Assembly (NCBI RefSeq): GCF_000026545.1
Contig: NC_011601.1
Reading direction: 5' to 3' (one strand)
DNA from: Escherichia coli O127:H6 str. E2348/69
GTDB taxonomy: Bacteria > Pseudomonadota > Gammaproteobacteria > Enterobacterales > Enterobacteriaceae
DNA: 64,000 bases
Made by a program: the position numbers. Shown here piece by piece: positions 51,701 to 57,700 of the stretch. Positions within the stretch are counted from its first letter, which is position 1; the number at the start of each line of letters is the position of its first letter.

Positions 51701-54700
51701 ACAGCTTGGAGAAGCGGTTAACCGCTATATCAGTATTCGCTATGACAAGATATCCACACTGTCATCATCCAATAATCAAAGCAGCGATCCGGGGCCAAGA
51801 ACCTGTACGTCTAATGGCTGTGAAATCACTTACCAGACGTTAATTAATGAAGGTTTGTTGCCTGTAGGCTATACAGGAACTAACGCGCAAAAAGCATCTT
51901 ACAAAATTGTGTTAAAGCGTTCAGGAACCGCGCCTAATTACGTGATTAATGGCCTTATAACAACCGCCAGCCCGTGGGAAGAAGGTGGTCGTATTCGTTA
52001 TGACCTGTTAGGTAAAGCGGTTCAGGCGGCAGGTGTTGATGGTGGTATGAGCAGAAGCACCAAGATCGCTTCTGGTTATGGTGGTCAGTGGAGTGAGAAC
52101 TCTAACAGCTACAATAACATCACGGGTGGTGGATTGCTGGCTTACCGCGTGGGGTATAACTCTTCAATGTATTCTGTTTACCTGCGCCGTGATGGGACGT
52201 TGCCGATGACGGGTGATCTGAATCTTGGTGGTAAGAGCATCAAAAACATCAAAGATATGACGGCATCAGGAACAACAACAACGGGAGCACTTAAGACAAC
52301 GGGTAATGCGTCTGTTGCATCAGATCTGAGTGTGGGTGGAACCTCGACCCTTAATGGTCCTGTAAATATCAACAACAATCTGAGGGTAAAATCCGATACC
52401 TATCTGAACACGCTTTCAACAACAGGTCTGGCGAAGTTTGGTAGTCGTATCGCGACGAATGGACTTAATCCAAACGATCTGCCTGCTGGCTGGGCTGGCG
52501 GTGTTCGCACCTATGATTTATATGCGTCAGGGACTGTTGGTGTAGGAACCGGGAAAACAGTTAAAGCTTACATGAATAATGCGGGTAATATTTATGCTTC
52601 AGGTAATCTTACTGCCGGAACGATAAAATCCAACGGAACAATTGAATCAACAGGCAGAATCAAAGCAGGTGAATATCTTCATTTGAATGGTCAGGCAACG
52701 TTAAATGCGAAATGTACGCCTAATGGTCTGGTGGGGCGAGACAGTGCGGGTAGGATGTTATCGTGTGTCAGTGGTAAATGGCAGACAGCAAGTGGTGATG
52801 GTCTGAAAGGTATTTTTATCACAATAACAGATCAAATCTCTGGTTATAAATGCGTTATACCGAATAGTGACACTGGGACATGTGCCTGCCCGGGATCAAC
52901 GTATAGTCCTCAGTTTGGTTATATATCTGGAACTTTAATCGCTGAATACGATGAACGACGTTGTAGTGGTAGTAAGAACGAGCACTGTTATAGTAATATA
53001 AGAAGGTTATATGCGTGTAGATAATGTTTCTGTCCATTTTATTTAAATGGTGATAATTGCCATTATCATATGTCATGGTAAATTAAAAGGGCCAAGAAGG
53101 CCCTTTATAATTAAGGCGTTTGTTTCACCAGAATCTATTTAGTTAAAATAGAAATCATCATCACCTGATTCAACGACATTTGTTACAAATGTTCTACATA
53201 CTATAAAATCATCATCATTATTTTCAATAGATTCTGTAAAAAATGTATCCATAGCAGACTGCTTTTCATTAGATATTTCGTATTTTCTTTCACAGTTGCT
53301 GGGGGCTAAACTGTAATCCTCATCTTGGTTCTCTATGACTCTTGTATGCGTTGTCCAAGTGTTGAGATAATCTTCATCATTAGGTTCTGTGGTAAATGTT
53401 TTTACGGTAGAGTTTGTTTTACTTGAAATTGTTGATGCGTTTATTTCGAAAGATTCACTATAGAGCATAGTATACGGTTTCATATTATATCCTTTTAATT
53501 TACAGCTAAAAACATGCCTGACGGCGTGAATATGATTTCATTCACTGGATTATCGCTATAATATTGCAGTGAAATGGAAAACATGTATAGCGTGATTCCA
53601 ACTAAAATCGATCTGTATAGATATTTTTCGGCATTTCTAACTATACCTGCAAAATATCTGACGTCATCTTTTCTTGCTATCCAGTCACGATATATAGCCT
53701 TCGTTAAGGCATAATTACTGTTATCAAATTTTAATGATTTAAAACTTGATTGAGAAAAACTACTTACCATCATTCCTTTTCTTAGAAAAAGAAATAAATT
53801 AATTATATCAACAAGCAATATAAAAAATAAATAATAGGAAATAAATCTTATTGCAAAATTTGTATTTGCGGATGGTAGAATGGTTTGTAGATAAACCACT
53901 GCCCCTGTGAGGGCAATAGTGATAGTAGTATAATGTGTTATCTTACTTTGAAGATTAGATAAACTATCGTTATTTTCGGAAAGGCGCTGCTTTAAAAAAT
54001 CTTCTTGTTCCTTCCTTCTTTTAGGTAGAATTGATTTAATATATTGACTATACGCCATGACATATTCTTCAATTTTTGTGCCCGATATTCTTGGGCAAAG
54101 TGTATCATAGTGTATGCTCGTAAAAAACTGGAAGTTAGATTTATCCAAAATACGGTTTGATTTTTTATTGAAAGTTAATAAATATATTATTTTACTCCCC
54201 ACAGGAAAACATAATAAAGATACTCTTAATGACGTAGAATTAATAATATTTCTTTTTTCAATAGTATCAAAATTCTCATCTAATGATGTGTGGAATAATA
54301 ATGAAAAGTTTAATAATTTTATAATAAAGTAAATGAAATTATACTTCATTTAAAAACCTCACTAACTCACTTGACACATTAATATTCGTTTCATTTTCTA
54401 GCCATGCCCATTGACCATTTGCATTCATCTCTAAGAAGAACCATTCACCATCAAAAACTATAAAATCAAAACATCCAAAAGAAATATTCATGACTGACAT
54501 ATACCTCAGACATTTTTCTTTTATAGTATCAGGCATTTTTATTGTTGAATAGAATATTTCGTTATTGTCTTTTCTCCAGTCAATTTTATTTTTAGATATT
54601 ATTTTTACCGAATAATCTTTACCATTTATGAATGTTGATCTCACCTCGAATTCTTTTTTTGTATACGATTGAAAATAAGCTGGACAATATTTTAATGTTT

Positions 54701-57700
54701 CTGTGTTTTTATTCATGTCAACCATATTTGTTTGAACAAATTCCTTTTCTTTCTGATTTTCTATCAATCCACTTGATAACGGTTTGACAATGCTATTGAT
54801 TGTCAAAGTGTTTTTGAAACAATCGAAATTATTTGTCAATATAAAATCAGGAATTGTGAATCCAATATCAATTGCAGTTTTTGCTTGCAATACTTTGTTA
54901 TCTGCTCTTTTTATAATTGATGGCTTGGATAAGCATTTTCCAGTAAACGACTCAGCAATCCCTTCAACAAAAGCGAATACTTCTCGAAAGCAATGATTAT
55001 GATATTTTGAATCAATTTTATTGATAATATTCTCAGGAGTTGGTTTTCTATAATAGATGGATCTGCATTCACTCTCGAGCAATTCATTATTATTTTTATT
55101 AACAATACTGAATCCTTTTTTAGTGTAAGAAAATTTATATTCAGAGAAATTATCAACATCTAACCTGTAAAAATTGTTAATGCTATGTTTTTTTACTATG
55201 TAATCAATTGTTTTATCAAAGCTAGATGTTATAACTAAAATCATTTTTATTCCTATCATTGATAACCATTTGGTATAAGCTGATAATAATTATATACCTA
55301 TACCTTTTGCGGGTTAAGTACAAGCCTCTCTCAAGATGAAGATCGCTATAGATTTCTGAAAGTTATTTGCTGTCAAGAGCTCTTTTTCATAGCAGTGGCT
55401 AACTTTTAGTTTCTCTTCGTTAAACGCGATTAGTTATTTTTATTCATTAAAAACAATAGACTATATCATAACTGTGTTTTTATACAGTTTTAGACTTGTT
55501 TTTAGGAAAACAAAGGATTATAAAATCTGTTGATGCCACTGTATGTGGTGTTTCTTTAGGAATGTAAGTACTACATAAGGGATATTCATAACTTCTTGGG
55601 GATTCGTTTCATGAGTAAAAACGTAAAACAGACTTCTGAAAATGTGGCTTCTACTGCTGCAAAAACGCTGGCTAATCCTAATGCTTCTGCCATCCAGAAA
55701 AGCCTCGCTGGTTCTGCGCTTTCGCAACGTGGGACATCAAACCAGACAAGTGGGCAAATGGAGCATAAGGCATCATCAGCTCTTGATAATCCACGTTCCA
55801 GCAAGTTAACGAAGCAACTTGCAGCCTCTGTTTTGGCACAATCAAACAAAGGGCGTAAGTGATAAGTAACAGGGAGAGTAAAACCTCCCTGCGTTTTTTA
55901 TTTACTGCGATTGTCTGCTTGCTGGAAGGCGATTATTGTTTCTGAGCAAACTCAAACGGCCTGACCATCCCATCCCAGTTAGCATCAAGAAAATCTGCCT
56001 ACCATTGTAGCATCAACCTTCGCTGCTCAAGATGTTTGGCCTTATGTGTATAGGCAGCACGAACACTGTTGCTTTCCTTGTGGTTCATCTGGAGTTCCAC
56101 CGCATCTTCAGACCATAGCCCTGATTCAATCAGAGCACTACATGCCAGTGTGCGGAAACCATGACCGCAAATATCCTGCGTGGTGTCATAGCCCATCTTA
56201 CGCAGCGCCTTGTTGATCATGTTTTCAATCAGACCGCTAAACATTGGCAAGACAAAACCCCGACCACTCATCCATCAACGCCACCCGCTTAGGCCATAAC
56301 GTCCCACGTTGATACGCAGCCTCTGCCTTATCTGCCAACTGGTGAGCTAACGCATGTTCAATTACCTCACGCGGATAGTTGGTCGTTTCACCAGCCCAAT
56401 CACGGAATGTCGATCTAAACCCATGCTGTGTTAAATCGGTATATCCCATTCGCTTTAGGACTGCCAGTAAAGCCGTATCCGAGAGTTGTCCCTTCCGAGT
56501 GGCAGGGAATACAAAACTGATACCCTTAAAGCGTGGTAAAGCTTTTAACAAGGCAACAGCAGCATCAGACAGAGGAACTCGATGCTCCTTCGCTGCTTTC
56601 ATTCGGCTTGCAGGTATGGTCCACGTTTTACCTTCAAGATCGATCTCTGACCACTCGGCACCACGAATTTCACCTGAGCGTGCTGCGGTCAGTATGGCAA
56701 ACTCAAGCGCACGAGGAGAAACGCCGCTTCGTTCACGTAGTTCTTTCATAAAAGAGCCGATCTGGTTATAGGGAAGGGCCGCATGGTGTTTGGTGATCTG
56801 AACTTTACTTGGCTGAGGCAACAGAGGTTTCAGCATACCTTTCCATGCGGCAGGATTATCACCTTCAAAGTATTCTTTGGCCTTGGCGTAATCGATCACT
56901 GTTTCAATACGTCCACGTAGACGACTGGCAGTTTCATTCTTGGTTAACCAGATAGGTTCCAGTATTGCCAGAAGATCGACTTTGGTGATTTCACTAACGG
57001 CCTTTTTGCCAATGAAAGGGTAGGCATAGGTTTCCAGTGTGGAACGCCATTGCGCGAGATGTTTTTTGTTCTTCATCTCACTGTCTTTGACCTCCAGCAC
57101 TTCTTCACAACATTCGGCAAAGGTCTTTTTCTTCCGGGCCAGTATTTCCTGCCGGGCTTTTTGTTCGTGTTTTTCTTGAAGGGGATTAATACCATTACGG
57201 ATTTGTTTACGTAGCTCACGCGCTTTGTCACGCGCTTCGGCTAAGGAGACTTCCGGGTAAGGGCCAAGCCCCATATTCAAACGTCTTGGAACTGTTCTAC
57301 CGAGATTGTTGATTCGGGTTCCCATAGCCACGCAAAGAACCCATGCACGGGACTGATTTCGGATGCGAAGGTATAAACCATCCACATTACCAACCGCATA
57401 CATGCCTTCGGATTTTAATCGTGATACGACGAGTCCTGATAGTTCCTTGGCCCTTTCAATGGCATTCGTCACACTTGATACAGAGTTGGCACATTCCTTG
57501 GTATTCTTTAACATTACTTTTTATCAACATCAGAATTTCGCATGTAGAAGGTAATCTAAGGTATTGAAATACTTATTGTTATTGTGATATATATAACATA
57601 TGCAATGATAAGCGCATTTATAGTTTGCGGGTAATTTTTATCTTTTACTGATGGTGTTTATTATTAATGATCATTAATGTAATATATATTAAAATTATTT

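Follow-up and report, generated by a model that had tools for sequence, protein, structure and literature searches.

Three tightly packed genes in a chromosomal island of Escherichia coli O127:H6 strain E2348/69 very probably form a biosynthetic cassette for a Group 3 (thuringinin-type) graspetide. yeeN and yeeO flank the island, which is inserted at a tRNA-Asn gene. All positions given here are those of the 64,000 nt stretch of DNA that we analysed (hereafter the window), which is identical (100 %) to the chromosome of this enteropathogenic E. coli strain. An ORF (open reading frame) scan placed the three genes on the minus strand, in the order ATP-grasp ligase (WP_012578934.1), membrane protein (the partner; WP_000876710.1) and small acidic protein, the candidate precursor (WP_000806208.1) (Table 1). 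At the level of sequence, the evidence demonstrates the enzyme class, the architecture of the precursor and its homology to the validated precursor TgnA, and the constancy of the membrane partner encoded between the ligase and precursor genes.

The thuringinin-type locus of E2348/69 is already known from genome mining. Row 1712 of Table S1 of Makarova et al. 2022 assigns E. coli O127:H6 E2348/69 (GCA_000026545.1, 301 aa) to Branch_Thuringinin, with the codes Iyer_Lee, Lee, cluster13 and gr_03 (PMC8939145). In this coding, 'Iyer_Lee' marks a ligase that shares clusters, at an identity of 80 % or above, with sequences of the Iyer 2009 set as well as of the Lee 2020 set, the precursor of E2348/69 clusters with Lee's precursors, and 'gr_03' marks a neighbourhood with a perfect match to the Lee group 3 motif; the 114 aa sequence is itself printed in the published precursor set, in cluster 13 (PMC8939145). 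As the E2348/69 locus stands in a published catalogue, the present finding is a re-discovery. Our literature searches turned up no experiment on the product of the E. coli cassette.

The ATP-grasp ligase and the multi-core precursor

The ligase matched the graspetide maturase models of NCBIfam over its full length (TIGR04187, E value 2.9e-50; MvdD, 5.9e-41; MvdC, 7.6e-41), and PGAP names it 'MvdC/MvdD family ATP grasp protein'. The initial annotation had described an N-terminal pre-ATP-grasp segment and a C-terminal macrocyclase signature, and both were borne out: Pfam identified the MvdD pre-ATP-grasp domain (PF21068, 2.5e-8), and the signature is present as FLEMNANGQWAWLE, which aligns with FLEVNPGGEWGMLE of MdnB. 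The region of the E-x-N Mg-binding motif, FLEMNANGQW, was invariant in 22 relatives. The nearest relatives in the PDB were all graspetide macrocyclases (MdnB, 8.6e-32 over the full length; CdnC, 7.2e-29; AMdnB; and MdnC), with PsnB (7drm) as only a distant match (6e-5). Judged by these homologies, the enzyme is a member of the MvdC/MvdD graspetide synthetase lineage.

The initial annotation had itself raised the alternative that the enzyme is a RimK or glutathionylspermidine-type amino-acid ligase, in which case the acidic repeat protein would not be a substrate for cyclization. Several homologues are named 'glutathione synthase/RimK-type ligase-like' by JGI, and the enzyme has weak RimK matches (TIGR00768, 1.3e-9; Pfam RimK, 0.23). 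However, the E values for the graspetide maturase models are better by 40 orders of magnitude (2.9e-50 for TIGR04187) and these models match the full length, whereas the RimK match is limited to the C-terminal ATP-grasp fold that the families share (residues 101-301; 37.8 bits against a cut-off of 143.4). The MvdD pre-ATP-grasp domain in the enzyme, and the homology of the adjoining small protein to TgnA, also speak against a RimK-type enzyme. With a sub-threshold score confined to the C-terminal part, this classification is effectively refuted, and we regard it as extremely improbable.

The 114 aa protein is strongly acidic (23 D+E against 8 K+R; pI 4.07; 13,270 Da) and contains four exact copies of the motif T-x-x-T-x-x-x-E-x-x-D-x-D, at residues 26, 44, 80 and 98. 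This motif, which we derived from the three repeats of TgnA, never occurred twice in 100,000 composition-preserving shuffles of the precursor (mean 0.0014), and, among the ORFs of 40 aa or longer in the window, it was found in no other. The four repeats had been described as tandem in the initial annotation; their number stands, but they are not strictly tandem, as the cores form two pairs on either side of a 23-residue spacer. The spacer is a decayed fifth core (residues ~60-74), in which one Thr donor and both Asp acceptors have been lost; at the aligned position, the precursors of Salmonella and Dickeya have the intact core STIETREIENSDQD. The only trace of the repeats in the DNA was one 19 nt pair at 84 % identity, indicating that the repeats are ancient at the DNA level and, therefore, that the residue pattern is what is conserved.

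In an alignment of 10 precursors, which included TgnA of Bacillus thuringiensis (MYRPYIAKYVEE), leader residues P3, Y4, Y8 and E10 were invariant. The conserved columns of the alignment were the Thr, Glu and Asp positions of the cores together with the leader P-Y..Y.E, confirming the earlier observation that the repeats carry the donor and acceptor residue types of graspetides. The 114 aa protein has the leader motif, the core motif and the repeat architecture in common with TgnA, and to judge from these features it is a homologue of that validated precursor.

All three genes are intact and tightly coupled, with good ribosome-binding sites. The ATP-grasp and membrane protein genes overlap by 11 nt (ATGAAGTATAA), and an 11 nt gap separates the membrane protein gene from the precursor gene, the ATG of which is preceded by AAGGA. 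The initial annotation had placed the three minus-strand ORFs correctly, apart from the start of the ATP-grasp gene. An upstream ATG at 55259 gives an alternative protein of 306 aa (54339-55259), but the second ATG, at 55244 (301 aa), is the more likely start, because it has AGGA 8 nt upstream and the first ATG has no such site, because homologues are 301 aa long, and because PGAP chose it. A terminator-like hairpin lies ~35 nt past the last stop codon (-14.9 kcal/mol, z -3.68); none of 200 shuffles folded as well, and a simple terminator scan did not list it. Given the gene overlap, the short gap, the ribosome-binding sites, and the hairpin and U-run after the last stop, it is reasonable to infer that the three genes are co-transcribed as a single, horizontally acquired operon. 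The GC content of the cassette is 28.6 %, against a window average of 43.5 %. Promoter-like -35/-10 matches, such as the one upstream of the ATP-grasp gene, were not above the shuffle expectation in this AT-rich stretch.

Table 1. Positions in the window of the cassette, its precursor segments and the features around it
Feature	Position	Strand	Basis
ATP-grasp macrocyclase / graspetide synthetase, thuringinin branch, 301 aa	54339..55244	-	NCBIfam, Pfam and PDB matches; published tree
Membrane partner, 284 aa, ~3 transmembrane segments, predicted cytoplasmic N-terminal beta domain and helical stems	53495..54349	-	Family profile, AF2 model
Multi-core graspetide precursor (predicted), 114 aa, pI 4.07	53139..53483	-	Four exact cores, TgnA alignment
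Leader recognition motif KPYTMLYSE, residues 2-10	53454..53480	-	Alignment of 10 precursors
Core 1, TVKTFTTEPNDED	53370..53408	-	Exact motif match
Core 2, TTHTRVIENQDED	53316..53354	-	Exact motif match
Decayed central core, PSNCERKYEISNEK	53262..53303	-	Alignment with intact core STIETREIENSDQD
Core 3, TFFTESIENNDDD	53208..53246	-	Exact motif match
Core 4, TFVTNVVESGDDD	53154..53192	-	Exact motif match
Promoter-like site TTAACC-17-TATAAT upstream of the ATP-grasp gene	55289..55317	-	Consensus scan match only
Terminator-like hairpin AAAGGGCC-UUCUU-GGCCCUUU, then UUAAUUU	53086..53106	-	RNA fold
AAA-ATPase (506 aa) and 310 aa partner	45558-48023	-	PADLOC PDC-M62A/B, 9.5e-23 and 1e-40
DUF262 protein with HEPN partner	57716-59547	+	PADLOC NsnA 5.6e-83, PD-T4-2_A 9.2e-44
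Integrase, intact	59614-60882	-	Annotation
tRNA-Asn	61062-61137	-	Annotation

Relationship to known graspetides and distribution of the gene trio

TgnA (EEM80215.1) begins MYRPYIAKYVEE and continues with three TT..T...EN.D.DE cores (PMC8939145 supplement). Thuringinin itself is a trivalent peptide in which every repeat bears two esters (PMC12291112), and its rings are lactones, with no lactam (PMC9826346). The thuringinin locus of B. thuringiensis serovar huazhongensis, which encodes TgnA, the ATP-grasp enzyme TgnB and a membrane protein, resembles the E. coli cassette in its gene trio and gene order, as seen in the near-identical locus on plasmid pHS18-2 of strain HS18-1. The E. coli ligase is 40 % identical to the pHS18-2 ligase (1e-72), and the two membrane proteins are 25 % identical (2e-7 in the pairwise comparison). 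The pHS18-2 precursor reads MYKPYIAKYVEE... and contains four repeat units, of which three conform to the strict motif. The thuringinin and E. coli precursors have in common a (K/R)PYxxxY(S/V)E leader and repeated TxxTxxxExxDxD cores. They differ in the number of cores (four intact and one decayed in E. coli, three in TgnA) and in the length of the leader before core 1 (~25 residues against ~45 in TgnA). Their settings also differ: in E. coli the cassette occupies a chromosomal island at tRNA-Asn, with defence genes around it, whereas the Bacillus thuringinin cluster is on a plasmid beside a cry gene.

The pHS18-2 cluster (5674-8332 on our contig L095) lies beside an IS6 transposase gene and a cry8Ea1-family toxin gene. 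The ligase ORF of this cluster, annotated as 'PH domain-containing protein', spans 393 aa, of which the N-terminal ~110 residues are non-homologous; the ligase of strain HS18-1 may thus be disrupted, its pre-ATP-grasp part having apparently been replaced.

The initial annotation had likened the ligase to the microviridin enzymes MdnC and MvdD. The graspetide reading held up, but the group is that of thuringinin. Microviridins (Group 1; MdnA with MdnB/MdnC or MvdC/MvdD) are made by ligases of the same family, with MdnB matching over the full length at 8.6e-32, but the two ligases, the Lys-Glu lactam, the PFFARFL leader, the acetyltransferase and the ABC transporter/peptidase of microviridin systems have no counterpart in the E. 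coli cassette. The acidic segment followed by an aromatic residue in the E. coli precursor is presumably similar to the C-terminus of microviridins. Plesiocin (Group 2; PsnA/PsnB) resembles the E. coli system in its multi-core precursor and single ATP-grasp enzyme, and has esters only, two per repeat. It differs in its core motif and leader, and PsnB is distant from the E. coli ligase (7drm, 6e-5).

The trio of ligase, membrane protein and precursor genes occurs in the same order in about 25 species. Among the Enterobacterales and allies it was found in Salmonella, Dickeya, Kluyvera, Brenneria, Enterobacter and Providencia, and among other Gammaproteobacteria in Vibrio, Aliivibrio, Photobacterium, Shewanella, Marinomonas, Colwellia, Pseudoalteromonas, Pseudomonas and Aeromonas. 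More distant carriers were two Desulfobacterota metagenome-assembled genomes (MAGs), a spirochaete MAG, Desulfosporosinus and B. thuringiensis. Beside thuringinin-branch ATP-grasp genes we identified 22 distinct precursors, which have between 3 and 6 cores apiece and 94 cores altogether; their sources are Enterobacterales, Vibrionales, Alteromonadales, Pseudomonas, Aeromonas, Desulfobacterota, a spirochaete and Bacillota. Of the 22, 21 have a (K/R/I)PY..NYSE-type leader. The 114 aa protein matched no Pfam or NCBIfam model. A word-based homologue search with it returned E. coli and Salmonella fragments only, and the precursor family was recovered solely through genomic neighbourhoods. Over 95 loci the scores on the ligase profile were bimodal, with the thuringinin branch above 380 bits and other ATP-grasp loci below 235 bits; the N-terminally replaced ligase of B. 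thuringiensis pHS18-2 scored 312.8 bits.

The initial annotation had considered such clusters unusual in Enterobacteriaceae islands, a view that the distribution contradicts. The cassette is present in 93 of 5,426 complete E. coli genomes; the region is at least 99 % identical in 91 of these, and the other two carry a diverged allele (60-80 % identity). The relevant block of the published Table S1 lists dozens of E. coli strains together with Salmonella, Klebsiella, Enterobacter, Yersinia, Providencia, Vibrio, Shewanella and Burkholderia (PMC8939145). In E. coli strain MB98, an IS1 transposase gene interrupts the region homologous to window positions 53000-55600. In Salmonella, the cassette directly adjoins the intact integrase gene of a related element.

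A tblastn search of plasmids with the ligase found one close relative, that of B. thuringiensis. The same search of a phage collection returned two distant hits only, on KF114876.1 (Leptospira phage LE1, 59120-60061) and MT835913.1 (a faecal phage contig, 8833-9756), both full length at 28-32 % identity. ATP-grasp enzymes of the type associated with RiPPs (peptides that the ribosome makes and that are modified after translation) are therefore occasionally phage-borne.

The membrane partner and the predicted product

The membrane partner had no match in Pfam, NCBIfam or PADLOC. An exhaustive profile search defined a family of 335 representatives (clustered at 50 % identity), each 250-390 aa in length, and the family profile detected both the E. 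coli protein (3.1e-95) and the protein of the B. thuringiensis locus (2.9e-59). A partner gene is found directly downstream of the ATP-grasp gene in every thuringinin-branch locus for which downstream sequence was available. Outside this branch the profile gave only two weak hits, in loci L078 (4.4e-5) and L083 (3.7e-6), and a remotely related partner may, on the basis of these sequence matches, exist in other graspetide groups. These two and five more distant ATP-grasp loci (L026, L030, L037, L062 and L072) have an overlapping downstream ORF of ~260-320 aa, and several of the seven adjoin BREX, restriction-modification (R-M) or PDC genes. Cluster 18 of the published analysis comprises uncharacterized membrane proteins specific to thuringinin loci, for which peptide transport was guessed (PMC8939145). 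From this description of thuringinin-locus membrane proteins, our partner family probably corresponds to cluster 18.

In the AlphaFold model of the partner (pLDDT 85.7, pTM 0.79), a hydrophobic helix at the N-terminus is followed by a small beta domain (residues 18-80), and the stems are long helices that run on into ~3 transmembrane segments. The near-invariant polar residues (D24, R42, S44, K136 and N239) are positioned in the beta domain and the stems, outside the membrane. Enterobacterial partners are without a C-terminal domain of ~80-100 aa that is present in the Bacillus, Vibrio and Shewanella versions; given the topology proposed here, this domain would lie on the periplasmic side. We observed, in two metagenome samples independent of each other, a 548 aa protein (P0235; contigs L096, 579-2225, and L097, 245-1891) in which the ATP-grasp enzyme is fused to the N-terminus of the partner, followed by a 134 aa four-core precursor with the leader MKKHILNHYKT..., which has no KPY motif. 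The fusion argues for physical coupling of the ligase and the partner and, since the ligase needs ATP, the N-terminal domain of the partner is therefore expected to be cytoplasmic.

Foldseek searches of the AlphaFold database with the partner model recovered members of the partner family, one of them annotated as SLATT, and weaker hits to proteins of ~220 aa that included SLATT and DUF4231 proteins. At the sequence level, Pfam gave no SLATT hit for the E. coli partner, and SLATT_4 at 0.03 in one of 149 family members; in NCBIfam the only SLATT match was SLATT_1, at an E value of 0.09, in one of 10 members. Membership of the SLATT family thus failed at sequence level in all members tested (149 with Pfam, 10 with NCBIfam), and the resemblance of the partner to the SLATT fold is a hint.

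By analogy with characterized graspetides, we propose that the ligase would bind the leader and use ATP to activate Asp/Glu side-chain carboxylates as acyl-phosphates, which would be attacked by Thr hydroxyls. As no Lys is conserved in the core motif, the E. coli ligase would form omega-ester (lactone) rings only. If each core received two rings, as is the case in thuringinin, the precursor would acquire up to eight esters, a loss of 144 Da from 13,270 Da. The product would be a tetravalent cross-linked peptide, in which the decayed central core serves as an unmodified linker. More tentatively, the partner may contact the ligase at the cytoplasmic face of the membrane and handle the product, either by export or as a scaffold.

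Several points weigh against the graspetide interpretation or against parts of it. The scores of the ligase on the graspetide models all fall below the curated NCBIfam cut-offs (171 bits against 350 for TIGR04187), so that the enzyme belongs to a divergent branch. The number and connectivity of the rings are extrapolated from thuringinin, and may differ in the E. coli product. The cassette encodes no leader peptidase, ABC transporter or other recognized transporter, and removal of the leader and export are therefore unexplained; the fold of the partner, with only ~3 transmembrane segments, is not transporter-like. The body of the island (35650-57500) is a decaying mobilizable element, with an internal stop in its MobQ relaxase gene and a fragmented integrase gene. 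Together with the one decayed core, this means that expression and activity in E2348/69 are not assured.

Island context and alternative roles of the cassette

The cassette is cargo of this decaying integrative island at the tRNA-Asn gene. The same island encodes RepL, TraD, a type IV pilin, PilV, a PIN protein and an H-NS-family protein, as well as several partial ORFs. PGAP annotates two integrase pseudogene fragments at 55933-57514 (minus strand), where our ORF scan found one open integrase-like ORF of 425 aa (56237-57514) and a 90 aa tail ORF (55999-56271); the region could be a chimera of two integrases, or the difference could be one of annotation. An 88 aa Ala/Ser/Lys-rich ORF (WP_000042269.1; 55596-55862, plus strand) runs divergent from the cassette and had no PADLOC match; a strong terminator-like hairpin comes after it, at 55870-55891. 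Elsewhere in the window, the small RNA genes DsrA (9671-9757, minus strand) and RseX (18092-18182, plus strand) are at their expected chromosomal places, as core-genome features.

The cassette was correctly described as lying among defence genes, with an NsnA/PD-T4-2_A-like DUF262 protein on one side and a PDC-M62A/B pair on the other (Table 1). The latter pair, in the same island, also gave weaker hits to Septu PtuA/PtuB and HNH models, and is a Septu-like uncharacterized pair. The DUF262-HEPN pair, situated between the intact integrase at tRNA-Asn and the degraded inner integrase, looks like a separate defence islet added in tandem.

In view of the state of the island, an alternative is that the cassette arrived with it and has since fallen silent, a relic that is no longer expressed or active in E2348/69 and would have no present function in this strain. 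The internal stop in mobQ, the integrase fragments, a frameshifted ORF and a partial ORF all testify to decay, the central core of the precursor has decayed, and the very low GC content of the cassette (28.6 %, against 43.5 % for the window) would fit the same account. DNA of very low GC content is typically silenced by H-NS in E. coli. There are also signs of loss in other strains, in the form of the IS1 insertion in MB98 and of the many E. coli entries in the published table that are truncated ligases of 94-264 aa (PMC8939145). However, none of the three ORFs is disrupted, their ribosome-binding sites are good and their translation is coupled, the conserved residues of the ligase have been kept, and four cores remain perfect motif matches. 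The retention of the region at 99 % identity or more in 91 complete genomes points the same way, and we consider a silent relic improbable.

A second alternative leaves the graspetide chemistry unchanged and concerns the biological role: the gammaproteobacterial branch of the cassette could be a mobile anti-phage or abortive-infection module. The cross-linked peptide would then stay inside the cell, where it would regulate, gate or plug a SLATT-like two-transmembrane effector (the partner), or inhibit a phage maturation protease. Such a role would explain why the trio comes without an exporter or peptidase, why the ligase and partner can be fused, and why defence systems are frequent neighbours. 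Besides the NsnA/PD-T4-2_A and PDC-M62A/B genes in the E2348/69 window, the cassette adjoins Gabija GajA/GajB in Vibrio cholerae, Lamassu LmuA/LmuB in Providencia, Dsr1 in Pseudomonas, SIR2 with HerA in Kluyvera, PD-Lambda-1 in Dickeya, Hachiman and type I-F Cas genes in Shewanella, BREX PglZ/BrxL and a DRT reverse transcriptase in Aliivibrio, type IV restriction enzymes in Marinomonas, and Septu PtuA in a Desulfobacteraceae MAG. In Shewanella baltica it lies beside a CBASS cyclase gene with a two-transmembrane (2TM) effector, and beside an AriA-like protein, and in Aeromonas it is inside a prophage. An SRA-HNH enzyme is also among the defence neighbours across species. The fold of the partner, with Foldseek matches that include two proteins annotated as SLATT and one as DUF4231, and the weak SLATT_1 hit (0.09) in one family member, would suit an effector. 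There is also a precedent among RiPPs, as lanthipeptide clusters in defence islands protect against phage (10.1101/2024.06.26.600839).

A named defence system was found within ~5 kb in 13 of 22 species loci, against 4 of 14 other ATP-grasp RiPP-type loci used as a control, or 7 of the 14 when candidate families were counted. This difference was not significant (Fisher P=0.10 for the 22 clade loci against the 14 controls; P=0.46 for the 17 loci chosen blind to context). The control loci also carry PADLOC hits nearby (BrxC, methyltransferases and PDC candidates), and PADLOC commonly gives single-protein hits to methyltransferases, reverse transcriptases and 'PDC' candidates; the control is itself imperfect, in that several of its loci also have an overlapping downstream membrane ORF. 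None of the three proteins hit a PADLOC-DB v2.0.0 model at E values up to 1. Hotspots of mobile elements gather bacteriocins and other cargo too, and thuringinin, the founding member, is encoded on a B. thuringiensis plasmid beside a cry toxin gene, outside any defence island. We therefore rate an anti-phage module, including its version with an intracellular peptide acting on the partner or on a phage protease, as unlikely, although somewhat less so than a silent relic.

The thuringinin-type graspetide cassette thus remains our preferred assignment, and its role is a separate matter. Characterized graspetides are protease inhibitors, and the residence of the cassette on mobile elements and beside defence systems suggests a role in conflict with phage, competitors or host proteases. 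We found no link between ATP-grasp enzymes or graspetides and phage defence in the graspetide and defence literature that we searched: the word 'defense' is absent from Makarova et al. 2022 (PMC8939145), and graspetides do not come up in a review of natural products and phages from 2025. The closest analogue, for the speculative defence role only, is the lanthiphages, which resemble the cassette as RiPP clusters in defence islands and on mobile elements. In contrast, these class I lanthipeptide systems of Actinobacteria are unrelated to it in chemistry, enzymes and taxa, and their protection against phage has been shown experimentally. The lanthiphage study reported a defence association of 4.7 % for a random gene and 26.6 % for a defensive clade, values that belong to that study and not to the genomes considered here (10.1101/2024.06.26.600839).

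The E2348/69 locus itself adds no new kind of system; its only new lead is the residence beside phage-defence genes together with the SLATT-like hint of the partner. We put forward the defence-island habit and the SLATT-like partner, with low confidence, as two leads that are absent from the graspetide literature. If the defence-island association is real, graspetides would be the second RiPP class with an immune role, after lanthipeptides, and the cassette would lend itself readily to tests in E. coli. The task of the membrane partner is a question common to the whole of the thuringinin and plesiocin groups. E. coli, the usual expression host for graspetides, is predicted to have a tetravalent graspetide of its own, encoded with a strictly conserved membrane partner.

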